Of a stretch of 64,000 nucleotides of DNA, positions 4,934 through 44,412 are shown in pieces. The notes under the pieces were generated by a model, which had not been told where the DNA came from, made no database searches, and saw only the letters and a list, made by a program, of their open reading frames with translations. The stretch lies in contig CADAGD010000004.1 in NCBI GenBank assembly GCA_902787375.1, forward strand, positions 28,018 through 92,017, read 5' to 3'. The position numbers were made by a program, and so were the translations under genes. The stretch is from an uncultured Eubacteriales bacterium (GTDB lineage Bacteria; Bacillota; Clostridia; Christensenellales; CAG-138). The number at the start of each line of letters is the position of its first letter. Positions within the stretch are counted from its first letter, which is position 1.

Positions 4934-5419
4934 ATGAAAAGAATTGTATCCGTATTCACACTTGTTATGATGGCTCTTGCACTCATGCTCACAGCCTGCA
5001 GCGGCTCCTCCGAGAAGGAGAAGCAGGTTACAAAGTCGGCGGCTGAGATTTACACCGCTGTCAGCGAAGCGGGCAAGCTTGAAGCTATGACGGCTGTTCC
5101 CTCCCGCGATTTCAGCGACGTATATGGCATCGACGCCGCAATGATAGAGGATTCCGCATGGTATATGTCCGAGAATCCCTCCCTCAATGCCGATGAGGTC
5201 GCCATTTTCAAGCTCAGCAGCGAGGAGTATGCAAAGACGCTTGCCACGCTGCTCAAGGACAGGATTGCCCGTCAGCTTCAGGTAGCCGAAATATACAGCC
5301 CAGAAGAGGCTGCTAAGATAAAGGCTGCTGAGGTCGTAACCGTCGGCAACTGGGTTTACTACTGCATAGGAACCGAGAATGCCGCCATGATGAATGTTCT
5401 CAGGGCTGAGATCGGCTGA
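4934..5419 (+). CDS. DUF4358-like lipoprotein
   Basis: Lipobox LMLTA|C. The size and the motif NADEVAIFKL resemble the DUF4358 proteins commonly next to MBOAT genes in Clostridia (recall-based). Confidence 0.65.
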   Translation: MKRIVSVFTLVMMALALMLTACSGSSEKEKQVTKSAAEIYTAVSEAGKLEAMTAVPSRDFSDVYGIDAAMIEDSAWYMSENPSLNADEVAIFKLSSEEYAKTLATLLKDRIARQLQVAEIYSPEEAAKIKAAEVVTVGNWVYYCIGTENAAMMNVLRAEIG

Positions 5420-6900
5420 TGACTTTTTCCAGCTTGCTGTTTCTTTCGGTATTCTTTGTTGCGGTACTGTTCTTCTATTACATAGTACCCAATAGACTTT
5501 ACCGCAACATAATACTGTGTATCACAAGTCTGTTCTTCTATGCTTGGGGCGAGCCGATATGCGTCATATTGATGATATTCTCAATACTGATGAACTATAC
5601 GGCAGGGCTTATCATGGGCAGATGCAGACGGAAGGGCAATGGCAGAGGAGCCAAGATCGCGCTCGTTGTGTCGGTGGTGTTGAATCTGCTCATGCTCGGT
5701 GTGTTCAAGTACACTCCGTTCGTGTTCGATACCGTAAAGGGGCTGATACCCTCCATGGCGAACATGCCCGCGCCCATTGCCAAGGATGTGCTTTATAAGA
5801 GCCTAAGCGGAATAATTCCTCAGCTCAAGAATGTCAACATAGGGGTTGAGGGGATGCTGCCGATAGGAATATCCTTCTACACGTTCCAGGCTATGAGCTA
5901 TGTTATAGACGTGTATCGCGGCGATACCGGGGTTCAGAAGAATCCCATGCTGTTCGGAACTTATGTCGCTCTGTTTCCACAGCTCATCGCCGGCCCCATT
6001 GTGCGTTACAAGGATATTGAGGATCAGCTCAAGGGAAGGCACGAGAGCGTAGCTCAGTTTGCTTCAGGTATAAAGCTTTTCATGGTGGGTCTTGCCAAGA
6101 AGATACTGATAGCGAATCAGGTCGCCCTGCTGTGGAATGGATTGAGAGCCGACGCCATGTCAAACGGCGTGCTTGGCTCATGGGTCGGCATAATTTCCTA
6201 CACGCTCCAGATTTACTTCGATTTCAGCGGTTATTCCGATATGGCGATAGGTCTTGGAAGAATGTTCGGATTCGAGTTCCTCAAGAATTTCGATTATCCG
6301 TATATCTCCCAAAGCGTAACGGAGTTTTGGCGCAGATGGCATATATCCCTCGGAACATGGTTCCGCGAGTATGTGTATATACCCCTCGGCGGAAACCGAA
6401 AGGGTATGCCGCGTCAGATATTCAATCTTGCCGTCGTATGGGCTCTCACGGGACTGTGGCACGGCGCAAGCTGGAACTTCGTACTGTGGGGAATCTGGCA
6501 TGGCTTCTTTGTAGTCATGGAGAAGCTTTTCCTCGGCAAGTGGCTCAAGAAATGGCCCAAGGCTCTGCGTCATGTATATGCCATGCTTGTCGCGGTACTC
6601 GGCTGGGCATTGTTCGATTTCACCGATCTGTCAAAGCTCTTTGAGTTTCTCGGATCGCTGTTCGACTTTTCGTCGGGAATTATATCCCACGACGCGCTTA
6701 CGCTCGTCATCTCGTTCCTGCCCCTGCTTGTTGTTGCGATAATCGCTTCAACCCCCCTCGGCGCAAACATCAGGCATAAGTTCGACGATAAACCTTGGGC
6801 TGAATGGCTCGATATAGTTTTCGTGCTTGTCGCGCTCCTGTTCTGTATCGCGTCGCTTGTCGCAAGCGGATATAATCCGTTTATTTACTTCAGATTCTGA
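5419..6900 (+). CDS. MBOAT family O-acyltransferase (AlgI/DltB/PatA-like)
   Basis: FYTFQAMSYVIDVYRG, FWRRWHISLGTWFREYVYIPLGGNR and the conserved His region. TGATG overlap with the upstream gene. Confidence 0.92.
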   Translation: MTFSSLLFLSVFFVAVLFFYYIVPNRLYRNIILCITSLFFYAWGEPICVILMIFSILMNYTAGLIMGRCRRKGNGRGAKIALVVSVVLNLLMLGVFKYTPFVFDTVKGLIPSMANMPAPIAKDVLYKSLSGIIPQLKNVNIGVEGMLPIGISFYTFQAMSYVIDVYRGDTGVQKNPMLFGTYVALFPQLIAGPIVRYKDIEDQLKGRHESVAQFASGIKLFMVGLAKKILIANQVALLWNGLRADAMSNGVLGSWVGIISYTLQIYFDFSGYSDMAIGLGRMFGFEFLKNFDYPYISQSVTEFWRRWHISLGTWFREYVYIPLGGNRKGMPRQIFNLAVVWALTGLWHGASWNFVLWGIWHGFFVVMEKLFLGKWLKKWPKALRHVYAMLVAVLGWALFDFTDLSKLFEFLGSLFDFSSGIISHDALTLVISFLPLLVVAIIASTPLGANIRHKFDDKPWAEWLDIVFVLVALLFCIASLVASGYNPFIYFRF

Positions 6901-7116
6901 TACCGCCTCCGACTTTATTGTATGGTTTGGATAACGGTATAATGGGTGCTTAAAAGACTGCCGTTCAACATGGATTGGCAGTCTTTTGTTATACGCTCGA
7001 TTGTTTTCCAAAGCCTTTGAGCAGCTTCCGCCAAGCTTTTCGGCTTATTGCGGGCGGATACCCCTGCGCGGCGAGTGCCATGTATGCTGCCTGTCTTGCC
7101 TGTTATTGCAGTGCTT

Positions 7117-8046
7117 TTATTGATGCTTTGTGCGCAGCGCGTTTTCAATCTGTTTTGAAGAAAACGTGCAAAGCTCCCTTCCGCCTGTCTTTACATTGCG
7201 CCGAACCTTATTGACGGCGGGATAGCCCCAACCGTTTAGAAATCCGCGTGGGCCGGAAATGCTCCCTGCGGGCGGCTCATTCGCAATTATATAGGGCAGG
7301 GAGAGCGCGGACTTTTCGGGGGAGTTGAAAAGCCCTCCGAGAACTGTCGCCAGATGCCCAACGACCTTTCCGAAAGCCTCGGTGCCGAGCGGAGTGATGG
7401 CAATGCCCGGATGACTCATCAGTATGTGGACATGGCTGTCCTTATTCCGCTGTGATATGTAATAGGTATACTTAGCAAGACAAAGCTTGGAGCGGGCGTA
7501 TACCGCAAAGCTGTTGTAGTGCTTGCGATAAAAGAAATCGCTGTAATCGACAGTTCCTATTTTGTGGATTATCGAGATGGTATTGATATAAATGACCTCA
7601 TGCGCCAAGCCTTCAAGATAGGGCAGCACCATTTCGGTAAGATAGTACGAGCCCAGATAGTTGGTTCCCATAACCAGCTCAAAGCCGTCCTTGGTAGTTT
7701 GTCCGGGCTTGCGGAATATTCCGGCGTTGTTCAGGAATATGTCCACATCGACATTGCCGCTTTTTAAATCCTCGACAAACGCGCCGATGGATGAGGTGTC
7801 GGAAATGTCAAGCGACATTATGTCAATGAGGGCTTTTGGATAATCGCGCAGCAGATTTGCTTTTGCGGCTTGGGCTTTTTTTATATTTCTGCAAGCCATT
7901 ATGACGTTTGCGCCAAGGTATGCCATAAGCTCCGATGCTTTGAAGCCTATGCCGCTGTTCGCGCCTGTTATAAGCACGGTTTTGCCGTTAAAGCTTACGT
8001 TACAGTTTTTTTCAAGCCATTTCTTTGTCTTCTTGTTGAGTGACAT
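7117..8046 (-). CDS. short-chain dehydrogenase/reductase (SDR) family oxidoreductase
   Basis: TGANSGIG cofactor motif, NNAG, and Y-x3-K (YARSK). Confidence 0.9.
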   Translation of the reverse strand: MSLNKKTKKWLEKNCNVSFNGKTVLITGANSGIGFKASELMAYLGANVIMACRNIKKAQAAKANLLRDYPKALIDIMSLDISDTSSIGAFVEDLKSGNVDVDIFLNNAGIFRKPGQTTKDGFELVMGTNYLGSYYLTEMVLPYLEGLAHEVIYINTISIIHKIGTVDYSDFFYRKHYNSFAVYARSKLCLAKYTYYISQRNKDSHVHILMSHPGIAITPLGTEAFGKVVGHLATVLGGLFNSPEKSALSLPYIIANEPPAGSISGPRGFLNGWGYPAVNKVRRNVKTGGRELCTFSSKQIENALRTKHQ

Positions 8047-17533: not shown

Positions 17534-17549
17534 CAGAACTAACGTTCTC
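17534..17549. promoter_or_regulatory. LexA (SOS/Cheo) box 1
   Basis: AGAACTAACGTTCT is a perfect GAAC-N4-GTTC palindrome abutting the -35 element. Confidence 0.7.
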
Positions 17550-34367: not shown

Positions 34368-36389
34368 ATGAAATCAAGGAAGCTTTTGTCAATAGTATTG
34401 ACAATCCTGATGCTGCTTGCGGTCATTCCCGTTTCGGCATTGGCGGACGCTGCCGCGGCAAGCGTTATGCACCGTAAAATGTGGAATGATACGGACGCCA
34501 TATGGGATCGCATAGACGCTCAAGTCAAGCTCATGGATTCCCAGGGAGCGTCAAAGAAGGAGATACTCGAAGCCATTTATGATATTGCGGCAAACGGCGA
34601 GGGAATAATCTCCTGCGAATGGGATGATGAGAATACATTCCACTTTGTCCATGAGAGCGGCATGGTAAACGGCTATGATTGGCGCGTCAATCATTCCGAC
34701 ACGGCAATTCCCCATGACGCAAGTCAGGACTATGTTCTGACGTCAATGCGCAGCCTTACGACCGCTACCGATCTGGACGCGATACTGCTTGGGCCGTATT
34801 ACGGACAGGATTCATCCTTTACCAATCAGTACCGCAATGAGGTTCAGGCGGTTGCCAACTACACAGAGGGAAACTATACGATCTATTCGGGAACCAACGT
34901 CAACGCCGACGCCTGCCGTGCTATTGAGGATTACGGTGTGGTATTCTTTGACAGCCATGGCACATGCCTGGGCGGCAAGAGCTACCTCTGCCTGACAACG
35001 AACAACGGCTTCACGAACGAGGACTTCACTTCAGGCCGTGCCGCCAGAAGCGGAAGCGAAGCACTTGTAACAGGTGCATTCTGGGAGTATTACTGCCCCA
35101 ACATGAAGGCTTCAATGGTTTGGATGGCTATTTGCGAGGGCATGATGACGAATACGCTCGCTTATCCGCTTATGAACGCCGGTGCTGCCTGCGTATACGG
35201 ATATTCCCAGTCCGTCACATTCGCGGGCGAATACATTTATTCGGCAACATTCTGGAATCATATGAAGCAGGGTGAAAACGTAGCCGAGTCGTATGCCGCC
35301 ATGGTAAGCACCCACGGCGTATGCGATCCTCATGGCGACGCATATCCTGTCGTCGTGTCCGAGGACGACGCATATCCCTCGAATCCCGATTCGCCTCAGA
35401 CGGTAAATTGCGAGTGGCATCTTCCCAAGCCCTCCGATCTCGTCATAACCGACGCCGAGAGCGTGTATTTTGAGAATGACGAATATGGCATCGCGCCCAC
35501 ATTCTCCGAGAAGCTGATACCTGTAGTCAACCCGGAGGGAGCCAATAACTACACCTCCGTATGGGAGAGCAGCGATACGAGCGTTGCCACCGTTGACCGC
35601 AGGGGAGTTGTTAAAGCACTCAGGGAAGGAACTGCGACAATCACATATACGATAACCTCCACAGAGAACAGCAATACGCAGTATACCTACTCCGCTTCCA
35701 CAGTAGTAAGGGTTTCCAACCGTTATCTGCCTGAGGAGGAGATGTACGTTGCCACAAACGAGATGGTTCCCGGTGAAACATATCTTATCGGCTATTGCTC
35801 CGGAAATCAGACCGTGGTCATGGGCAATGTCTATAATGATACAAATAATAACCGCACACTCAAATCCGTCGCCGTTACGGTCGGCGAGGTTTCGGGCGTT
35901 AAGTGTATCACAAGTGCTGTTGACGAGGGTATGCAGTGGGAATGGAACTCCAACGGATACATCAAGAACGTCGAAAACGGCAAGTATCTGAATCTCACGG
36001 GCAATTACCTGACGATGGGCAATACCCCCGTGGTCTGGACGTTCACCCCAACCACCGATGCGCAGACCGGCACGATCACAAATAACGCGAACAGCAACTT
36101 CAAATATCTCGGCGTCAGCAATAGTCTCACATACTTCAGCGTATTCCTCAAGGGCTATGAGCTGCAGCTTTTCCGCAAGCTCACCCGCGAGGCAGGGGAG
36201 CATGTTCCCGGCGATGCTGACGGTAATGGAGTTCTTGAGCTTGCCGATGTACTCATGCTCATCCGTCATGCTATGAATATCGAGAAGATTCCCGATGAGA
36301 GCCTGACTGCCTGTGACCTCAATAACAACGGCACTATTGACATGGACGATGCGCTTATAGCTATGCGTATGGTGCTTGGCTCAAGGTGA
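34368..36389 (+). CDS. secreted dockerin-containing protein with Big_2 domain and a possible caspase-fold (clan CD-like) peptidase domain
   Basis: Signal peptide. VVFFDSHG and MVWMAICEG strand-His/strand-Cys patterns. Big_2 (VWESSDTSVATVD...ATITYTI). C-terminal type-I dockerin duplicate (GDADGNGVLELADV / DLNNNGTIDMDDA). Confidence 0.85.
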   Translation: MKSRKLLSIVLTILMLLAVIPVSALADAAAASVMHRKMWNDTDAIWDRIDAQVKLMDSQGASKKEILEAIYDIAANGEGIISCEWDDENTFHFVHESGMVNGYDWRVNHSDTAIPHDASQDYVLTSMRSLTTATDLDAILLGPYYGQDSSFTNQYRNEVQAVANYTEGNYTIYSGTNVNADACRAIEDYGVVFFDSHGTCLGGKSYLCLTTNNGFTNEDFTSGRAARSGSEALVTGAFWEYYCPNMKASMVWMAICEGMMTNTLAYPLMNAGAACVYGYSQSVTFAGEYIYSATFWNHMKQGENVAESYAAMVSTHGVCDPHGDAYPVVVSEDDAYPSNPDSPQTVNCEWHLPKPSDLVITDAESVYFENDEYGIAPTFSEKLIPVVNPEGANNYTSVWESSDTSVATVDRRGVVKALREGTATITYTITSTENSNTQYTYSASTVVRVSNRYLPEEEMYVATNEMVPGETYLIGYCSGNQTVVMGNVYNDTNNNRTLKSVAVTVGEVSGVKCITSAVDEGMQWEWNSNGYIKNVENGKYLNLTGNYLTMGNTPVVWTFTPTTDAQTGTITNNANSNFKYLGVSNSLTYFSVFLKGYELQLFRKLTREAGEHVPGDADGNGVLELADVLMLIRHAMNIEKIPDESLTACDLNNNGTIDMDDALIAMRMVLGSR

Positions 36390-36420
36390 TCGAATAAACA
36401 ACTGATTTGATAAGACAAGG

Positions 36421-36439
36421 CCGGGAGCGACGCTCCCGG
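36421..36439. terminator. bidirectional stem-loop between convergent genes
   Basis: CCGGGAGCG-A-CGCTCCCGG, followed by TGATTTTC on the plus strand. Confidence 0.65.
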
Positions 36440-36455
36440 CTGATTTTCATAATCT

Positions 36456-37535
36456 TTATTTGTTGCTTGCTTTGCTGTAAACCCGCATAAACCGAGGACT
36501 TTTCCGCTCATACAGCAGCTCCGCCATGCGGTCGGCGTTTTGGATAACGGATTGTTCATGGACGCATTGCACATGAGGAACCTCGTGCATATTGCCCGTC
36601 ATGCTGAAATTAAGGCAGGCGCAATGGTGACGGCAGCGTTTTGCAAGCGTACAGCCATCGCAGCTTGCTTCGGGCAACAGCGACATTTGGTATATGCGCT
36701 CGCGTGCCTGTTCGTCAATGCCGCTGCTGACGCTGCCTATGCGGTATTCGGGGATATTGAGGAACTGATTGCAGGGGTATATGGAGCCGTCGGGAGCGAT
36801 CGACGGCTGCTTGTAGCCAAGACGGCATTCGATACAGGAGCGGGATTCCAAATGGCAGGCTATTTTGGACTCGAAATTCAGGTAATGCAGAGGCCGTTCA
36901 TCATCAAAATGAGAGGCACAGAACTCGGCAAGGATGCCGTACTGGGCGTCCAGCTCCTCCATGGAATTATCATCCCATGCGTTGTTCGGTCGGCAGTCTA
37001 TGGCTGTGTTCACACGCGAAAAGCCGCGAGCGTAGAGCCATTCCACCGACTCTGCAAGCCTGCCGACATTTTCGGGAAGTACGGTCATCATGGCGATGGC
37101 ATTAGGCTGAAGCTTCAAGAGCAGGTCTATCTTAGGCTCAAGAAGCCGTGAAGTGCCTCTGCCATCGGGAAAGACACGCTGAGCGTCCTGCAAAACGCCA
37201 TCATGGGAGAGGGCTATCTCCAGCTTATGCCTGTTGGCGGTTTCGATAAAGGCTTCGTCGAGCAGCAAACCGTTTGTGGTCATCTTGTATGACAGGGATG
37301 CACCGTGAGCTCGGTTCAGCTCCTCGCAGTATTCAAGTACCCGAATGATGGTTTTACGACACAAAAGGGGTTCCCCACCGAAAAAGGAGAACCCGTTTTT
37401 TTTATGCCCGTATGAAAACATCAGCTCGCAGGCGGAGAGAGCCGTTTCGGTACTCATGCGCGCATGGGAGTGCTTTTCATAGCAGTAGCGACAGCTTAAA
37501 TTGCAGTCGGCTGTTAAATGCAGAGTAAAGTTCAT
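36456..37535 (-). CDS. radical SAM enzyme with C-terminal SPASM/twitch-type auxiliary-cluster domain (AnSME-like architecture)
   Basis: CNLSCRYC (CX3CX2C) at residues about 11-18, GGEPLL. C-terminal Cys series C-x2-C...C...CDGC-x5-C-x3-C-x-C. Confidence 0.9.
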   Translation of the reverse strand: MNFTLHLTADCNLSCRYCYEKHSHARMSTETALSACELMFSYGHKKNGFSFFGGEPLLCRKTIIRVLEYCEELNRAHGASLSYKMTTNGLLLDEAFIETANRHKLEIALSHDGVLQDAQRVFPDGRGTSRLLEPKIDLLLKLQPNAIAMMTVLPENVGRLAESVEWLYARGFSRVNTAIDCRPNNAWDDNSMEELDAQYGILAEFCASHFDDERPLHYLNFESKIACHLESRSCIECRLGYKQPSIAPDGSIYPCNQFLNIPEYRIGSVSSGIDEQARERIYQMSLLPEASCDGCTLAKRCRHHCACLNFSMTGNMHEVPHVQCVHEQSVIQNADRMAELLYERKSPRFMRVYSKASNK

Positions 37536-37954
37536 CTGTTTTGACCGTTGCTGCCGTCGCCTGCATATGTGGGATTGGGGAGGTAATTGCCTGCGGGAGC
37601 TTCGTCGGCGGAGCCGTCGCCATCTATGGTGGAGGGATCGGGAAGTATATCGCCCATCAGCTCAGGGTCATCGTCTTCCGGCGGTTCAAGTATAATTCCC
37701 GTAGTGGATACCTCGCCGCCTGTCAATTCGGATGGATCGACTTCAATATCCCCTTCAATCGCAACGTCACCGGGTTCGGTTTCACAGATGGTGGAGGGGT
37801 CTGCAAGGGGTTCTCCTCCCAGTTCGGGCTTGCCGCAGCCGACAGCCGTTCCCGCGGCAAGCACCGCCGCTGCCGTGAGAATGCCGACCTTGCCCGGAAG
37901 AGAACGCTTGGACGGATAGCTCGGAGCGTATTCGGTCTTCTTTGATACCTTCAT
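37532..37954 (-). CDS. acidic lipobox-bearing repeat protein; candidate substrate/partner of the radical SAM enzyme
   Basis: GAGGAGG RBS. Basic n-region, hydrophobic core and TAVG|C lipobox. The mature part is rich in Asp/Glu/Pro/Gly with a repeated (D/N)P(S/T)x(I/L/Y) motif. ATGA overlap with the rSAM gene. Confidence 0.7.
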   Translation of the reverse strand: MKVSKKTEYAPSYPSKRSLPGKVGILTAAAVLAAGTAVGCGKPELGGEPLADPSTICETEPGDVAIEGDIEVDPSELTGGEVSTTGIILEPPEDDDPELMGDILPDPSTIDGDGSADEAPAGNYLPNPTYAGDGSNGQNR

Positions 37955-38032
37955 AATAATGCCTCCTCATGCAGTGAGAATGGATGATACACCTTCTGAC
38001 TATATAACGAACGAAAGCTCCAAAAGGTTGCA

Positions 38033-39070
38033 TCAATCTTCGTCGGAAATGTCGCGTGCGCTGTCGGTAAGCTCAACGACGCATTCGGCAGTACCCATTA
38101 TGGCACGGAGCTTGGATTCTATCTCGGCAGCGACCTCAGGATTATCGCGCAGGAACTGCTTGGCGTTCTCGCGTCCCTGACCTATGCGCATATCGCCGTA
38201 TGAGAACCATGCGCCCGTCTTGGAAATTATCTTGTTGGTAACGCCCATATCGAGCAGCGAACCCTCCTTTGAGAAGCCCTCGCCATACATGAGGTCTACC
38301 TCGGCAACGCGGAAGGGAGGAGCGACCTTGTTCTTGACTACCTTTATGCGGACGCGGTTGCCGACCGCTTCGCCGCCCTGCTTGAGAACATCCACTTTGC
38401 GAACATCCAGCCTTATTGTGGCGAAGAATTTGAGAGCGCGTCCGCCCGTAGTGGTTTCGGGATTGCCGAACATGACTCCGACCTTCTCACGAAGCTGGTT
38501 GATGAATATTACGCAGCAGTTGGATTTGCCCACTATTCCGGCAAGCTTGCGCAAAGCCTGGCTCATAAGCCTTGCCTGAAGACCCACATGGGAATCGCCC
38601 ATATCGCCCTCAAGCTCCGCCTTGGGAACAAGGGCTGCAACCGAGTCGATGACTATTATATCGACCGCGCCGCTTCGGACGAGGGTATCGGCAATATCGA
38701 GTGCCTGTTCGCCGTTGTCGGGCTGGGATACGAAAAGGGCGTTGAGGTCAACGCCGAGCTTGGCGGCGTAAACGGGATCGAGGGCGTGTTCGGCGTCGAT
38801 GAAAACAGCCATGCCGCCGAGCTTCTGTGCCTCGGCTATCATGTGCAGGGCAAGCGTCGTCTTGCCGGAGGATTCGGGGCCGTAAACCTCTATTATCCTG
38901 CCTCTCGGAATGCCTCCGACACCGAGAGCGTTGTCCAGCTCGATACATCCCGTGGGTATGACCGAAACCTGTATCTTCTGCGCGGCGTCGCCCATGAGCA
39001 TTATCGCGCCCTTACCGAACTCCTTCTCTATCTGTGACAGAGCGAGATCCAATGCTTTTTCCTTATCCAT
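38033..39070 (-). CDS. recA: recombinase RecA
   Basis: [12 protein letters not shown] Walker [10 protein letters not shown], full-length 345 aa. Confidence 0.99.
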
Positions 39071-39102
39071 ACTATTCCTCCGTTTATTGTAAATGTTTGT
39101 TT

Positions 39103-39612
39103 TTAGATCGTTTTAGCTAATTTATACAGCAATTTGAGAGCTTCATACACGGCTTGACGTCGTATCTCGGTTCGGGAGCCTGATAGATTCAGCTCGCGTG
39201 TAACGAAGCCCTTGGAGGTTGAGCCGCCTATGAATACCAATCCGGCGTCGCGCCCAAGCTCATCTTTGCCCGGCCCCGCAAGCCCCGTCGTGGAGACGGC
39301 TATATCCGCACCCGATGTTTTACGCATACCCTCAGCCATCATCTTGGCTACAGGACGGCTTACGGCGGTATGCCTTTCTATAATGGAAGGGTCGCAGAGG
39401 AGCCTTGAAGCCTTTGCGCAGTTGGAATATGTCACCGCGCCTTCAAGGAACCACTTTGATACTCCGGGAACGGAAACTATCTCGGAGGCGATAAGCCCTC
39501 CGGTAAGGCTTTCGGCTGTTGCGGCGGTTGCTCCTTTGGCGATGAGTATGCCTGATATGGCGGCAGTCAGCTCTGAGCAAACCCTGTGAAATACTGTTTC
39601 ATCTTCAAACAT
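39103..39612 (-). CDS. CinA-family C-terminal domain protein (nicotinamide-nucleotide amidohydrolase PncC-like)
   Basis: 169 aa, [10 protein letters not shown] motif; conserved position upstream of recA. Confidence 0.85.
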
Positions 39613-39618
39613 ACAGCA

Positions 39619-40218
39619 TCACCTGTCGCTGAAAAGATTTTTGCTCTTTATTGTGTAATCCGCGCCTGACCAAATGGTCATTATAACGGATGCCGCCACG
39701 AGTATGAAATCGAGCGGAACGCCGACGGCACGGCATATCGGCCCCAATATCAATACAACGGGAAGCGCGATGCTCTGGAGAGTGGTCTTTATTTTACCGA
39801 GCTTTCCGGCTGCCATGACGACGCCCTTGCTTGCGGCTACAAGACGGATGCCGCTTATAAGAAACTCCCTGCCAATTACAATCACCGTGAATATGGGCAT
39901 GAGAAAGTCACAGCAGCTCATAAGACCACGACCTATCAGCATTACCATGCAGGCGGAGGTCAGGAGCTTATCCGCAATGGGATCCATAAGCTTCCCGAAG
40001 TCCGTTATAAGGGCGTTCTTTCGAGCTATATGCCCGTCGAGAGCGTCGGTGATGTAGGCAAGTATGAAAATGATTGCGGCAATTATGTATTTAACATAGA
40101 GCTTCGCGCCCAATACCTCAAAAAGCACCCAATCGGGCAGATAGAAGCAGATGATAAAAAAGGGTATTGCGGCAATGCGCGCCACGGTGAGCTTGTTCGG
40201 AAGATTCATTTGAAACAT
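39619..40218 (-). CDS. pgsA: CDP-diacylglycerol--glycerol-3-phosphate 3-phosphatidyltransferase
   Basis: CDP-alcohol phosphatidyltransferase motif DALDGHIAR...GKLMDPIADK. Confidence 0.92.
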   Translation of the reverse strand: MFQMNLPNKLTVARIAAIPFFIICFYLPDWVLFEVLGAKLYVKYIIAAIIFILAYITDALDGHIARKNALITDFGKLMDPIADKLLTSACMVMLIGRGLMSCCDFLMPIFTVIVIGREFLISGIRLVAASKGVVMAAGKLGKIKTTLQSIALPVVLILGPICRAVGVPLDFILVAASVIMTIWSGADYTIKSKNLFSDR

Positions 40219-40225
40219 CTCCTGT

Positions 40226-41551
40226 TCATGGGTTTATAGGTTCGGCGTCGAGATCATATGTTTCCGCGCCTGTTATGCGCACATTTATGTAGTCGCCGCA
40301 TTTGATTTTGCTCACGTCGGACAGCCTCACCCTGATAAAGCCGTCAACCTCGGCAGCCTCGGCATAGGAGCGGCAGAAAGCGACGCCGTCAGATATTTCA
40401 TCGACAAGCACCTCGCAGATACTTCCGATGCGCCTTTTATTCGCGGCAAGCGAAACCGCCATCTGATCCCGCATAAGCCTGTCAAGGCGGTGTTGCCTGA
40501 CCTTTTCCGGAACCTGATTATCCATTGCGGCAGCGGGAGTGCCGTCCTCAGGAGAATAAGTGAACGCGCCCAAACGGTCATAGGGATGCGCTTTGAAGAA
40601 CTCACGAAGCGCATCGAACTGAGCGTCCGTTTCGCCGGGGAAGCCTACTATCGCGGTGGTTCTCAATATGAAATCGGGATTGGCGTTCCTTATGTAATCC
40701 GTTATACTGCGTATATGCTCGGCTGTGCCGTGACGGTTCATGGCGCGAAGTATATCCGGGTCGATATGCTGTATCGGCATGTCGATGTAATTGCATATCT
40801 TGGGATTGGCGTTTATGGTATCAATGAGCTTTTCATCGACCGTGTTGGGGTATGTGTACAGAAGTCTTATCCAATGCAGCTTTTCAATATCCGCAAGCGC
40901 GGTGAGAAGCTCGGCAAGCTTAGGCTTGCCGTAAATATCAATGCCATAGGCGGAGGTATCCTGCGCTATTACTGTCAGCTCGGTAACGCCGCCTTCTGCA
41001 AGCTCCTTTGCCTCAGCTATGAGCTGCTCCATAGGATAGCTCCTTCTGCCGCCCCTGATAATGGGTATGGCGCAGTAGGTGCAGCGATTGTCACAGCCGT
41101 CCGCAATGCGCAGATAGGCGCGGTAGGAGGGAGTTGTTAGTATGCGCGAGGATTTTGGAGAATGGGCGCAGGCGGAAAGCCCGTATGCGGAAAAACCGAG
41201 CCGCTGCTCAATGGCGTCCGCAAGCCCGCTGTGATCCCTGACGCCCCATATGAGGTCGGCTTCGGGAAGCTCCTCGCGCAGCTCATCATAATATCTCTCG
41301 GTCAAGCAGCCGCATACCACAAGCAGACGGCAGGACGCCTCATTCTTATATTTTACCATGTCAAAAACCGTGTCGAGCGAATCGACCTTCGCGCTTTCTA
41401 TGAAGCCACAGGTGTTGACGATAATCACCTCGGCGTCCTCCGGAGAGCTTACGGGCGTGAAGCCGCGTCTTACAAGCTCTCCCAATATCTCCTCGGAATC
41501 GACCCTGTTTTTGGAGCAGCCGAGGGAAACCATACCTACCTTACATTCCAT
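40226..41551 (-). CDS. rimO: ribosomal protein S12 methylthiotransferase RimO
   Basis: UPF0004 N-domain (SLGCSKN), radical SAM CDNRCTYC, C-terminal TRAM domain. Confidence 0.93.
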   Translation of the reverse strand: MECKVGMVSLGCSKNRVDSEEILGELVRRGFTPVSSPEDAEVIIVNTCGFIESAKVDSLDTVFDMVKYKNEASCRLLVVCGCLTERYYDELREELPEADLIWGVRDHSGLADAIEQRLGFSAYGLSACAHSPKSSRILTTPSYRAYLRIADGCDNRCTYCAIPIIRGGRRSYPMEQLIAEAKELAEGGVTELTVIAQDTSAYGIDIYGKPKLAELLTALADIEKLHWIRLLYTYPNTVDEKLIDTINANPKICNYIDMPIQHIDPDILRAMNRHGTAEHIRSITDYIRNANPDFILRTTAIVGFPGETDAQFDALREFFKAHPYDRLGAFTYSPEDGTPAAAMDNQVPEKVRQHRLDRLMRDQMAVSLAANKRRIGSICEVLVDEISDGVAFCRSYAEAAEVDGFIRVRLSDVSKIKCGDYINVRITGAETYDLDAEPINP

Positions 41552-41577
41552 ACATTACCTCTGTATAAAAACCAAAC

Positions 41578-44412
41578 CTAAATTATACTATTATCTCCAA
41601 ACAATTCACGATAGCCCGCCTCGTCAATAAGCACCTTTCGGGGCTTACTGCCGTCGAAGCCGGAAACGAGCTTCATCTGTTCCATTATATCAACGAGCCT
41701 TGCCGCTCTTGCGTAACCAACGCGAAGACGCCGCTGAATCATGGAGATGGAGGCGGAGCCTGAGTCCATGACGATCCTTACCGCGTCGGGGAGCAGCTCA
41801 TCCTCCTGCTTGCCGTTGCCCTGTCCCGTGGGCGCGGTCAGATCGGGTATGGCGTCGAGAACATTGTTGTTCTGGGGTACTTCTATCTGATGGTCAACGA
41901 AGAATTGCATTATGTTTTCAACTTCTTCGTCGCTGACATACGCGCCCTGCGCCCTTGTGGGCTTTGCCGCGCCGTTGGGATGGAAGAGCATATCACCGTG
42001 GCCGAGCAGCTTTTCCGCGCCGCTGCCGTCGAGTATGACGCGGGAGTCGATCGCGCTTGAAACGGCAAACGCGATTCTTGAGGGGATGTTGGTCTTTATA
42101 AGACCTGTTATGACGTCAACGGACGGACGCTGGGTCGCAACTATGAGGTGTATGCCGCAGGCGCGGCCGAGCTGTGCAAGACGCGCTATGGATTCCTCGA
42201 CATCCTTGGCGGAAACAATCATCAGATCAGCCAGCTCGTCTATGATTATCATAAGACGGGGCATCCTGTTTTCCGGCTCTGTCTGGAGGGAATTGAAGCG
42301 GGCAAGATCGCGTGCGTTGACCTTGCTCATCTTGGAGTAACGCTGATCCATCTCATTGCACGCCCACTTGAGTACGCCCGCCGCCTTTTTGGGATCGGTA
42401 ACGACAGGGCAGTAGAGGTGCGGAACAGGCGCGAAAATCGAAAGCTCAACCACCTTGGGGTCAATGAGTATCATACGCACCTCATCGGGCGAAGACTTAT
42501 AGAGCGTTGAGAGTATTATGCTGTTTATGCAGACGGATTTACCGGAACCCGTCGCGCCGGCTATCAGCATATGGGGCATCTTTTCAAGATTGGCATATAC
42601 GGGCTTGCCGGCTATATCCTTGCCGAGAGCGAATGTCAGCGGAGATGACGCCGTGGCAAATTCCCTTGTATCCAGAACCTCGCGCAGGCGTACCATTGCG
42701 GTATCCTTGTTGGGTATCTCTATGCCTATCGCCGCCTTTCCGGGTATGGGCGCCTCTATTCTGACGCGGGGAGCGGCAAGCGCGAGAGCTATATCGTTGC
42801 TCAGAGAGGTTATCCTGTTGACTCTTATTCCCTGCGCGGGCTGTATCTCGAATCGTGTTATGACTGGACCAACGGATATGTTAATGACCTTCGCGCTGAT
42901 ATTGAAGCTTGCGAGGGTTTCTATGAGCAGCCTTGCCTTTTCCGAGGGGGAGTCATTGGCTATGGACTCGCTCCTGTCAGGCAGACGCAGCAGGGATATG
43001 GGAGGCTTTTGATAGACCTGAACCGCAGGCGGAGCCTCAAGCCCATCCGGCTCATCGTCATTATCGCCAGAGGCTTTTTTTGAGGACTCAACGGCAGGCT
43101 TTGCGGGCGCGTCCGTAGCCGTGTCGGATGCTTTGGGCACATCGGGTTCATCCTCGTCAAGGCTGCTCAAGCTCTCGTCGGGTATTATCTCTATTGTTTC
43201 ATATGGATCGTATTCCGTAATAACGGGCTTCGCGGGAGCGGGCGTCCGACCCGATGCGGAGCCGTGCATCCTGTATTCATAGGGAATGGCTCCCGAAGCC
43301 GGCAGCACGTCAAGTCCGCTTTCCGTATCGACCGCGTTGTTGATAACGGAGTCGAGGTCGGAAAGCTCGACCGTCATATTCATACTGCCGCGCTTGTGTC
43401 CCTTAAAGCTGCCGCGCAGCCTGTCGCCGTCCTCACCGATTTTAAGCTCTTCGTCGGCATTGTCGGCGGATACATCCGACATGGCGGGGAAGGGCTCGTT
43501 GAAAGCGATATTCGTGACGTCAGGGGCGGCAGAGGAGGTATGCTCGGCAGAGCCGCTTTTTGCGTGTGGCGTGTGAGCGTTATTTATTTCTCTATCTGTG
43601 TCGTAGCAGGAGTCGTATTCAAGCTTTCCGGCGTATATGCGCGCCTTACGGCGATCTTCCATCGCATCCATTTTGGCGACTATCTTCATGCCGGCGGAGC
43701 GAAGGGAAACCCTCGTTGCGAGCAGTAGCAGTACAAGAGCGGCGGCAATGAATATAACTATCGCGCCGCTTACCGTAACAAGCTGCGAGAGCGCATAGGA
43801 GGGTATGGCGGACAGCAGACCGCCGCCCTGACCTTCCTTGCCAAAGTTGAATGCGTCGGAAAGAAAATCACCGAATGCGATACCGCTTACAGGGAATGTA
43901 AACAGATGCGCTATGCAGTCTATACAGAACATGGAGCCGGAAAGCATTATAATAGCTCCCGTACCCACCTGACGTTTTGGAACGAATATGAGTATTACTC
44001 CGAATACGCAGAGCAAAACGGGTATGGCATATTGAAGTATGCCGACAAGACCGCACAAAAAACCGACAACGGCTTTAAAAACCGCGTTGGAATTGGTATA
44101 AGTCAGTATGCCCGAAACTATTCCGAGGGCTATAAGTATGATACCGACAAGCTCGTCGATATGATCGTAGCGAGGACGCGGCGATTTGCGCTTTTCGGGC
44201 AGGGGCTCTGAAGACGGAGCGGCTTTATCCCTTCCCGATGCCTTGACGGCAGGTTTGGGACCTGTTTTATGAGGTGCTTTATCGGTTGTCTTCCTGACGG
44301 TCTTTTGAGACGCCTTGCCGGAGGCTTTGACGACCGAAGTCGTAAGCTCCGTTTTTGTATTCTTTTTTGCGGACGTCGTTTTTTTCGGTGTGTTGCTTTT
44401 CTTATTCTCCAT
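41578..44412 (-). CDS. ftsK: DNA translocase FtsK/SpoIIIE
   Basis: N-terminal TM domain, long linker, motor with Walker A GATGSGKS, C-terminal gamma winged-helix domain. Confidence 0.95.
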   Translation of the reverse strand: MENKKSNTPKKTTSAKKNTKTELTTSVVKASGKASQKTVRKTTDKAPHKTGPKPAVKASGRDKAAPSSEPLPEKRKSPRPRYDHIDELVGIILIALGIVSGILTYTNSNAVFKAVVGFLCGLVGILQYAIPVLLCVFGVILIFVPKRQVGTGAIIMLSGSMFCIDCIAHLFTFPVSGIAFGDFLSDAFNFGKEGQGGGLLSAIPSYALSQLVTVSGAIVIFIAAALVLLLLATRVSLRSAGMKIVAKMDAMEDRRKARIYAGKLEYDSCYDTDREINNAHTPHAKSGSAEHTSSAAPDVTNIAFNEPFPAMSDVSADNADEELKIGEDGDRLRGSFKGHKRGSMNMTVELSDLDSVINNAVDTESGLDVLPASGAIPYEYRMHGSASGRTPAPAKPVITEYDPYETIEIIPDESLSSLDEDEPDVPKASDTATDAPAKPAVESSKKASGDNDDEPDGLEAPPAVQVYQKPPISLLRLPDRSESIANDSPSEKARLLIETLASFNISAKVINISVGPVITRFEIQPAQGIRVNRITSLSNDIALALAAPRVRIEAPIPGKAAIGIEIPNKDTAMVRLREVLDTREFATASSPLTFALGKDIAGKPVYANLEKMPHMLIAGATGSGKSVCINSIILSTLYKSSPDEVRMILIDPKVVELSIFAPVPHLYCPVVTDPKKAAGVLKWACNEMDQRYSKMSKVNARDLARFNSLQTEPENRMPRLMIIIDELADLMIVSAKDVEESIARLAQLGRACGIHLIVATQRPSVDVITGLIKTNIPSRIAFAVSSAIDSRVILDGSGAEKLLGHGDMLFHPNGAAKPTRAQGAYVSDEEVENIMQFFVDHQIEVPQNNNVLDAIPDLTAPTGQGNGKQEDELLPDAVRIVMDSGSASISMIQRRLRVGYARAARLVDIMEQMKLVSGFDGSKPRKVLIDEAGYRELFGDNSII

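Follow-up and report, generated by a model that had tools for sequence, protein, structure and literature searches.

Radical S-adenosylmethionine (SAM) enzymes with a SPASM domain are a main source of new peptide chemistry, and to our knowledge nearly all of those that have been characterised have as their substrate either a short leader-core peptide or one of a few enzymes, such as sulfatases and QhpC. What role, then, does such an enzyme play when its gene overlaps that of a small, acidic, lipoprotein-like protein just downstream of recA? This arrangement is found in a stretch of 64,000 nucleotides (hereafter the window, meaning the whole stretch that was analysed) from an uncultured Eubacteriales bacterium of the Christensenellales lineage CAG-138 (GenBank assembly GCA_902787375.1, contig CADAGD010000004.1, positions 28,018 to 92,017 of the forward strand). 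Analysis of both proteins and of their relatives in other genomes leads us to regard the pair, with moderate confidence, as a self-contained module of a maturase and its substrate for a modified surface lipoprotein, in which the enzyme probably modifies its partner before export. The modification is one that we infer, and our confidence in any specific chemistry is much lower than our confidence in the substrate relationship. The pair is laid out as follows:

36456..37535, minus strand: radical SAM/SPASM enzyme of 359 residues, without the N-terminal RRE domain (the recognition element of peptides made by ribosomes and modified after translation, RiPPs); assigned from PF04055, NCBIfam and the fold of an AlphaFold2 (AF2) model
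37532..37954, minus strand: partner gene, coding for a lipoprotein-like precursor of 140 residues (signal region plus acidic repeat tail); assigned from the open reading frame (ORF) and family conservation
37532..37535, minus strand: ATGA overlap between the partner stop and the enzyme start, read from the sequence
37962..37968, minus strand: GAGGAGG ribosome-binding site, 7 nt ahead of the partner ATG, read from the sequence

An initial annotation of the window had described the ATGA overlap, the GAGGAGG site and a 140-residue ORF 78 nt from recA, and the sequence agrees on each count. The overlap is labelled here as putative translational coupling of the two genes.

The enzyme carries its predicted cluster sites in two regions:

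37482..37505, minus strand: CX3CX2C motif (C11, C15 and C18) in CNLSCRYC, residues 11-18, the radical SAM [4Fe-4S] site, found by motif scan
36564..36836, minus strand: SPASM half with C234, C237, C255, C292, C295, C301, C305, C307 and C324, all invariant columns of enzyme alignment A1

Membership of the radical SAM superfamily is supported by PF04055, which scores 45.4 bits against a threshold of 29.5. The SPASM subfamily, with two auxiliary [4Fe-4S] clusters, is defined by the pattern CX9-15GX4C ... CX2CX5CX3C ... C, and the enzyme contains it in full as C237-x12-G-x4-C255, C292-x2-C295-x5-C301-x3-C305 and C324; by this motif it is placed in the subfamily and binding of the auxiliary clusters is predicted, PF13186 taken alone remaining below threshold (17.2 against 21.5 bits). 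The CNLSCRYC motif and SPASM-type Cys series reported earlier for the 359-residue ORF are both present, the latter as the complete motif with C237 to C324. C234 and C307 are additional conserved Cys residues, beyond the seven of the SPASM motif. C307 and two conserved His residues also belong to a family signature, R-C-R-H-H-C-A-C-L-N (residues 300-309, window positions ~36609-36638, minus strand), which sits inside the CX5CX3C part of the motif, where CteB has C-S-G-G-C-A-A-N.

Comparison with curated families places the enzyme near several peptide maturases and inside none of them. The best NCBIfam model is that of PapB (NF047865), with 184.7 bits against a cutoff of 340 and an alignment that spans positions 5-329 of the 330 in the model; next come the nif11-peptide maturase TIGR04064 (131 bits), SCIFF (TIGR03974, 128.5 bits against 425), QhpD (TIGR03906, 115.3 bits against 453), the CXXX-repeat maturase and other peptide maturases, all far below their cutoffs. 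Every top hidden Markov model (HMM) match is to a peptide or protein maturase. Scores for the sulfatase maturase models are lower (TIGR03942, 68.2 bits against 349; PRK13758, 45.6 against 441), as are those for the cyclophane-forming maturases AmcB and YhhB (51-52 bits). The enzyme thus does not group with the sulfatase, SCIFF or QhpD maturases, an outcome in favour of the initial annotation. In a family profile search the closest solved protein is CteB (163 bits, 23% identity), and since the alignment spans CteB residues 99-445 only, the N-terminal RRE domain is missing from the enzyme. Its AF2 model (predicted local distance difference test score, pLDDT, 88; predicted template-modelling score 0.87) matches the folds of CteB (template-modelling score, TM, 0.80-0.83), the anaerobic sulfatase-maturing enzyme anSME (0.75-0.79), ChlB (0.75), TigE (0.70) and SuiB (0.61). 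The GYW motif that marks cyclopropyl synthases is absent from the enzyme.

An exhaustive search of 1.84 billion cluster representatives returned 240 clusters at E < 1e-30, which form a continuum of RRE-less proteins of ~350-390 residues, and ten wider relatives (27-48% identity) all have the PapB model as their top match, at 179-232 bits. Judged by these profile scores, the enzyme is a member of a sizeable, uncurated group of PapB-like SPASM maturases; it is related to the thioether-forming peptide maturases PapB and CteB, yet stands outside them and outside every curated family.

The partner can be divided into a signal region and a repeat-bearing tail, with these features:

37904..37930, minus strand: n-region motif Y9-A-P11-S-Y13-P14-S-K-R, from partner alignment A2
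37835..37888, minus strand: hydrophobic h-region and lipobox-like T-A-V-G-C40, with an invariant Cys preceded by G/A
37787..37816, minus strand: repeat 1, GEPLADPSTI, residues 47-56
37724..37753, minus strand: repeat 2, GDIEVDPSEL, residues 68-77
37625..37654, minus strand: repeat 3, GDILPDPSTI, residues 101-110
37562..37591, minus strand: repeat 4 (degenerate), GNYLPNPTYA, residues 122-131

The partner begins with MKVSKKTEYAPSYPSKRSLPGK, followed by a hydrophobic stretch and TAVG-C40; put differently, its signal region runs from MKVSKK to K22, continues with VGILTAAAVLAAGTAVG and reaches C40. The same design recurs throughout the family, as M-K-x-x-K-x-x-x-Y-x-P-x-Y-P-[KR]-K, ~15-20 hydrophobic residues, [G/A]-Cys and an acidic tail. 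Partner alignment A2 shows no variation at M1, Y13, P14 and C40 and conservation of at least 90% at Y9 and P11, which makes the n-region motif the best-conserved part of the partner, an unusual property for the n-region of a signal peptide. Distant partners keep a Tyr at this position within related forms of the motif, and the residue two after Y13 is unconserved (S, K, Q, M, A, D, G or R). All 57 partner sequences have [G/A]-C after a K/R-rich n-region and 15-20 hydrophobic residues. The window's partner likewise combines a positive n-region, an uncharged h-region and a small residue at -1 before Cys, the marks of a lipoprotein precursor. The Lys-rich n-region, hydrophobic core and TAVG-C lipobox had been correctly recognised in the initial annotation, which had overlooked the invariant Tyr-Pro motif, the most conserved part of the protein. 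The codons for the invariant residues vary synonymously (TAT/TAC, CCN, TGC/TGT) and 48 of 56 partner genes have a Shine-Dalgarno-like core, and therefore the partner ORFs are real coding sequences.

In the window, the mature part of the partner comprises 101 residues, with 25 Asp+Glu, two Lys+Arg and one further Cys (C57), in line with the earlier estimate of about a quarter acidic residues, two basic residues and one additional Cys. That annotation had also listed four short motifs. These are present, and [DN]-P-[ST] occurs four times against 0.29 expected (p ~5e-5 by shuffling), but they form only the ends of a longer, Gly-centred repeat, the true unit, which had been missed. Aligning on every Gly of the tails gives [L/T] at -2, G, [E/D/K] at +1, V/I/P at +2/+4 and D/E/P at +5/+6, that is, a unit [L/T]-x-G-[D/E/K]-Φ-x-Φ-[D/E/P] (Φ, hydrophobic residue) with an invariant Gly at its centre and 2-8 copies per partner. 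The core pattern G-x-Φ-x-Φ occurs 220 times in the 57 partners, compared with 58.6 +/- 6.7 in shuffled tails, and repeat 3 of the window's partner corresponds to the family's best-conserved, C-proximal repeat, L-x-G-x-Φ-x-x-[PD].

The tails are disordered, acidic and Pro/Thr-rich, and the partner family is a fast-evolving one. Overall they contain 16% Glu, 15% Pro, 10% Asp, 9% Gly, 9% Thr, 3% Lys+Arg and 0.4% Cys, with few aromatic residues, and Asp+Glu makes up 19-33% of individual tails. The repeats are Cys-free, and 26 of 40 partners have no Cys other than that of the lipobox. The first repeat, which contains G-[D/E], begins ~5-12 residues after that Cys in every partner, and the spacing from Cys to acidic residue varies widely among partners. 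Partner lengths range from 76 to 160 residues at 41 loci, and from 76 to 201 when distant partners are included. When the 140-residue protein was used alone as the query, only relatives of at least 98% identity and one duplication allele were retrieved; this same-species allele (P0001, 181 residues) carries a 41-residue internal tandem duplication over two repeats and represents a polymorphism in repeat number. Neither this partner nor any of 32 partners scanned has a Pfam or NCBIfam match. In agreement with the earlier remark, the partner fits no known substrate class, and the C/S-x-P-x-R motif of sulfatases is absent from it.

If the partner is the substrate of the enzyme, the two should occur together wherever their families are found. 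A scan of one genome per species yielded 43 loci with enzyme relatives of 53-71% identity; of these, 41 are informative, in that the upstream DNA is present, and 59 loci were fetched overall, all from related metagenome-assembled genomes (MAGs) of rumen or gut Clostridia/Christensenellales. Genes at these loci were read by tblastn with the window's genes, motif scans and gene calls, longest-ORF calling being prone to pick up antisense ORFs in GC-rich DNA. At all 41 informative loci such a partner lies directly upstream on the same strand, separated from the enzyme gene by 0-60 nt or overlapping it; at two loci missed by the strict partner pattern it was found by direct reading or with a relaxed pattern. 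The strict pattern has no match elsewhere in the loci (~3-13 kb each) or in the 64-kb window. The reverse search gives the same picture. A partner profile built from the related loci retrieves 197 unannotated proteins of 98-175 residues, and for five partner homologs that were traced individually from their sequences a gene follows at 4-9 nt in every case, encoding a 359-residue radical SAM protein in four and being cut by the contig end in the fifth (L057). The partner family is found only next to this enzyme clade. The check proposed earlier, whether homologs of the 140-residue protein always sit beside this radical SAM clade, thus comes out positive from both search directions and in several unrelated neighbourhoods.

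The pairing persists as the surroundings change. At least four unrelated neighbourhoods were observed, namely cinA-recA-[pair], RNase J...YlbF-YceG-sigma factor-prs-[pair]...carD, a major facilitator superfamily (MFS) or ATP-binding cassette (ABC) transporter gene-[pair]-esterase, and [pair]-carD-yidC-jag-mnmE. recA lies upstream in only about 12 of the 43 loci, those closest to the window (ftsK-rimO-pgsA-cinA-recA), so the recA link that had been pointed out earlier exists in the window's lineage and is not a trait of the module. Because the pairing is kept across changed neighbourhoods, the pair constitutes an autonomous two-gene module with a lineage-specific recA link, and these differing contexts speak against plain synteny. 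Lipobox-bearing partners are still found upstream of enzymes at 48%, 42% and 38% identity; their N-terminal Tyr motif is a related one, they contain G-D/E-Φ-x-Φ, and tandem copies occur among them too. The module reaches its limit at 31-33% identity, where large, unrelated genes lie upstream. The enzyme is better conserved than its partner (56-73% identity versus 24-56% to the window's partner). At about 15 loci a single enzyme gene is preceded by two partner paralogues in tandem. Such features are general traits of RiPP-type pairs: an adjoining precursor gene, a conserved recognition region with a variable core, and several copies, the conserved n-region and variable tail resembling a leader/core arrangement.

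Several further observations concern individual loci. The tandem-partner loci are L002, L010, L012, L015, L018-L024, L040, L041, L043, L047 and L050, and in the prs-linked clade the first copy ends ...LMGDVA(V/I)xDxxP and the second ...PALQGKIxVPE(D/E)TPEP; these distinct endings indicate that both paralogue types are themselves conserved. A PF00756 'putative esterase' gene (~250 residues) lies 3' of the pair in MFS- or ABC-linked contexts (L044-L046, L058 and L059) and does not follow the pair in recA-linked or prs-linked contexts, and at L044-L046 an unannotated gene of ~440 residues (or 241 + 140 residues) is located between the pair and the esterase. The radical SAM gene is called as two ORFs (209 + 154 residues) in one metagenome contig (L045, 6332-7425), and at L010 the ORF (from 2992) ends after 249 residues; these broken genes represent either frameshifts or pseudogenes, or else assembly errors. 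Both genes of the pair are intact at 39 loci. Directly after the 42%-identical radical SAM gene at L050 is a 701-residue PF00884 protein (5233-7338), which matches LtaS models and not formylglycine sulfatases; this envelope-related neighbour may or may not be meaningful.

Taken as a maturase-substrate module, the pair would operate as follows. The enzyme would bind the newly made precursor in the cytoplasm, the n-region motif acting as a leader-like docking element, and 5'-deoxyadenosyl radical chemistry would then modify each repeat, either on its acidic residue or on one of the two aliphatic residues beside the invariant Gly. Since the repeats lack Cys and aromatic residues, the general reaction cannot be the thioether or cyclophane formation known from the nearest relatives, and an epimerisation or a C-C or C-O cross-link, for example, would be expected as a Cys-independent product. 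By analogy, plausible entry points are hydrogen abstraction next to Asp/Glu carboxylates, as carried out by PapB (PMC9413430), or on Val/Ile, as with TvgB, TigE and epimerases. The modified, unfolded chain would subsequently undergo Sec export, lipidation on the conserved Cys and cleavage by signal peptidase II, giving a lipid-anchored, polyanionic, probably protease-resistant surface peptide. In the window's lineage, the pair would ride on the recA transcript. A bolder version of this scheme, which we put forward only tentatively, is that the pair represents a new class of radical-SAM-modified lipoprotein, in which the n-region Y-x-P-x-Y-P-K-K doubles as the leader for an RRE-less SPASM enzyme, a Cys-independent modification is made in every repeat before Sec export, and the resulting lipid-anchored, protease-resistant polyanion belongs to the core components of the envelope in rumen Christensenellales-like Clostridia.

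Several points weigh against the module as we read it. The evidence from adjacency is correlative, and the number of modules is inflated by the shared ancestry of the related MAGs. The pair has no conserved companion that would be a protease, a transporter, an immunity gene or a second modifying enzyme, although the lack of a conserved protease, transporter or second enzyme fits a protein-maturation role. Lipidation of the partner is predicted from the sequence alone, and under the PROSITE PS51257 rule the lipoprotein Cys falls within about the first 35 residues, whereas the partner Cys lies at positions 33-45, mostly 37 (40 in the window), and hence mostly beyond this limit and later than in typical lipoprotein signals; the late position arises because the conserved motif lengthens the n-region. 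The closest characterised relatives of the enzyme all use Cys thiols and the repeats are Cys-free, so that the chemistry would need to be unlike that of any close relative. Finally, a single-chain AF2 fusion of partner and enzyme gave no docking, residues 1-138 having pLDDT < 50 with the partner part represented by a single sequence. The initial proposal of an uncharacterised class of modified lipoprotein can accordingly be restated: an uncharacterised enzyme-substrate pair for a lipoprotein-type precursor is the best-supported explanation, and the post-translational modification itself is still a matter of conjecture.

Other explanations would place the action of the enzyme elsewhere. Its target could be the N-terminal Y-x-P-x-Y-P-K-K (for example through a Tyr cyclophane or a Tyr-Lys link), in which case the fragment released by signal peptidase II would be the product, perhaps a signalling peptide, and the acidic tail would stay unmodified, as a carrier or a surface protein. 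This would account for the n-region motif being the best-conserved part of the partner, with Y13 and P14 invariant and Tyr retained in distant partners, and it finds some echo in the weaker HMM matches to the cyclophane-forming AmcB and YhhB and in the precedent of enterococcal sex pheromones, which are cut from lipoprotein signal peptides, and of streptide-type radical SAM RiPPs (RaS-RiPPs), which are short cross-linked signals. We nevertheless consider it unlikely, as it leaves the conserved, multiplied and duplicated G-x-Φ-x-Φ-acidic repeat unexplained, the unconserved residue two past Y13 misfits a three-residue cyclophane site, and the cyclophane-former models score far below those of PapB and CteB. 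Strict and tight juxtaposition over changing neighbourhoods, down to 38% enzyme identity, is harder to reconcile with a partner that is no substrate at all, being an independent small surface lipoprotein or membrane tether while the enzyme acts on another protein, a lipid or a small molecule. Such a role would be compatible with the fact that modification of the partner is only conjectured, with the undocked fusion model (and its single-sequence partner part) and with the location of the pair among housekeeping genes, where the export and protease genes usual for RiPPs are missing; moreover, some SPASM enzymes, such as AhbD, act on non-peptide substrates, as the title of PMC10452713 also indicates. 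Tandem partner copies and repeat expansion are, however, typical of substrates, the best HMM and fold matches of the enzyme are all peptide or protein maturases, and the modelled partner has no folded domain that would suit an enzyme subunit, making this explanation improbable as well.

Thioether chemistry offers another route. The invariant Cys might be unlipidated and linked to the beta or gamma carbon of an Asp/Glu in the first repeat, as by PapB and QhpD, with the hydrophobic segment serving as a membrane anchor. PapB, SCIFF/CteB, QhpD, the CXXX-repeat maturases and CcpM, which are the nearest families, all form Cys thioethers, the first repeat with its G-[D/E] starts ~5-12 residues past the Cys, and PapB tolerates Cys-to-Asp/Glu spacings of 0-6 residues (PMC9413430). 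A single Cys cannot explain 2-8 conserved repeats, though, and the widely varying spacing to the acidic residue, the lipobox-type setting of this residue (positive n-region, 15-20 hydrophobic residues, G/A at -1) and a score of only about half the PapB cutoff all speak against this arrangement, which we regard as very unlikely. The suggestion that the enzyme is an anaerobic sulfatase maturase with its sulfatase encoded elsewhere and the small ORF incidental draws on the second-best fold match (anSME, TM 0.75-0.79), on the likewise RRE-less anSME of ~370 residues and on the PF00884 gene that follows one distant relative at L050. Against it stand sulfatase maturase scores (TIGR03942, 68 against 349; PRK13758, 46 against 441) that are well under those of PapB and CteB, a partner without C/S-x-P-x-R and the lack of a conserved sulfatase gene near the pair in the other loci of the 59 fetched. 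Given these HMM scores and the LtaS-like nature of the sole PF00884 neighbour, we reject this identity, the probability of which appears negligible.

The genes and transcript signals around the pair in the window include:

38033..39070, minus strand: recA (ORF), 78 nt upstream of the partner ATG
36419..36441, strand not assigned: GC-rich hairpin (10 pairs, 8 of them G-C) between the converging radical SAM and dockerin-protein genes

Within the 78 nt from the recA stop to the partner ATG no terminator-like hairpin was found, in agreement with the initial annotation, and recA and the pair are probably co-transcribed in the window's lineage only. The hairpin at 36419-36441 is a likely transcript end as judged from its pairing, with a weak minus-strand T-tract. 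It is common to the radical SAM gene and to the gene that converges on it, which encodes a 673-residue secreted protein (34368-36389, plus strand) with a Big_2 domain (residues 385-431) and a C-terminal type I dockerin (residues 614-669; PF00404, 34.4 bits); the presence of a dockerin protein suggests that the organism builds a cellulosome-like assembly. Upstream, the order ftsK-rimO-pgsA-cinA-recA (window 38033-44412, minus strand) is shared by the 12 loci most closely related to the window. Near cinA-recA there is no GAACN4GTTC (Cheo/LexA-type) box, the sole match in the window being at 17536-17547, and an Rfam scan of 36200-39800 gave no meaningful match. Antisense or alternative-frame ORFs of 110-203 residues extend over both genes (36540-37151, 37541-37945 and 37587-37919, all plus strand); long overlapping ORFs of this kind are typical of GC-rich coding DNA.

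Both protein families lie outside curated models, and the module is conserved and uncharacterised. Relative to known SPASM maturases with a co-encoded substrate, the new elements are a lipoprotein-type precursor, a conserved motif in its signal peptide and Cys-free acidic repeats. No description of a SPASM enzyme dedicated to a lipoprotein-type precursor with Cys-free, aromatic-poor acidic repeats was found in NCBIfam, Pfam or the full-text literature. If the proposed relationship is true, the substrate classes of SPASM enzymes would be extended by a new one, and their reactions probably as well, and a Sec/lipoprotein signal peptide would double as an enzyme recognition element. It would also indicate that rumen bacteria which are abundant yet uncultured have a previously unknown component on their cell surface, within a taxonomic range that is narrow and consists of uncultured organisms only.

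How, finally, does the pair compare with known systems? Full-text literature searches for radical SAM/SPASM enzymes together with lipoprotein, lipobox, or Christensenellales and rumen returned no description of such a system, and the comparison must be made with individual maturases that share some of its properties. The anaerobic sulfatase maturases (anSME; TIGR03942; PDB 4K36-4K39) are of similar size, lack an RRE, have two fully Cys-ligated auxiliary clusters and act on a substrate that is exported afterwards, but here there is neither a sulfatase partner nor a C/S-x-P-x-R motif. QhpD modifies QhpC in the cytoplasm before export and forms Cys-Asp/Glu thioethers. As a SPASM enzyme working on a later-exported protein it resembles the scheme proposed here, although the partner, unlike QhpC, is not Cys-rich and would be exported by a lipobox-type peptide; none of the qhp genes (qhpA/qhpC) was found near the pair in the neighbourhoods read. 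CteB, which acts on the SCIFF peptide CteA (PDB 5WGG, 5WHY), is the closest solved structure and has in common with the enzyme a radical SAM core and a SPASM domain with two auxiliary clusters. It differs in having an N-terminal RRE, which the enzyme lacks, and SCIFF peptides have ~45 residues and six Cys, compared with the Cys-poor partner. ChlB (PDB 9GM3, 9GMC) is a 375-residue radical SAM protein (TM 0.75, 19% identity) whose crystal structure, according to the title of its entry, contains the precursor's leader region in bound form, and it is mentioned in work on triceptide RiPPs (PMC12912966). ChlB acts on a small peptide, and its likeness to the enzyme is one of size and fold.

The PapB/PapA system (freyrasin, a ranthipeptide; NF047865) provides the best-scoring curated family and, like the pair, combines a radical SAM/SPASM enzyme with a substrate that has several short Asp/Glu-containing repeats. 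In contrast to PapB itself, the enzyme reaches only about half of the cutoff of 340; PapA has C-x3-D repeats that yield a Cys-Asp thioether product, whereas the partner has Cys-free repeats and a lipoprotein-type signal in place of a plain leader, and no precursor with repeated Cys-x3-Asp lies nearby. TvgB on TVGG and TigE on TIGSVS are SPASM enzymes that modify Val/Ile in short Gly-containing repeats, and the GYW motif provides a Tyr ligand to the first auxiliary (Aux I) cluster in radical SAM cyclopropyl synthases (PMC10878394). TigE, unlike the enzyme, has an RRE domain, and the relationship between the two is weak (39.6 bits, TM 0.70); membership of the cyclopropyl synthases was rejected on the absence of GYW from the enzyme, and the likeness is one of analogy only. 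With their variable repeat number, TvgB and TigE (PDB 8VPO) offer the closest analogy for a Cys-independent reaction on repeats such as those of the partner.

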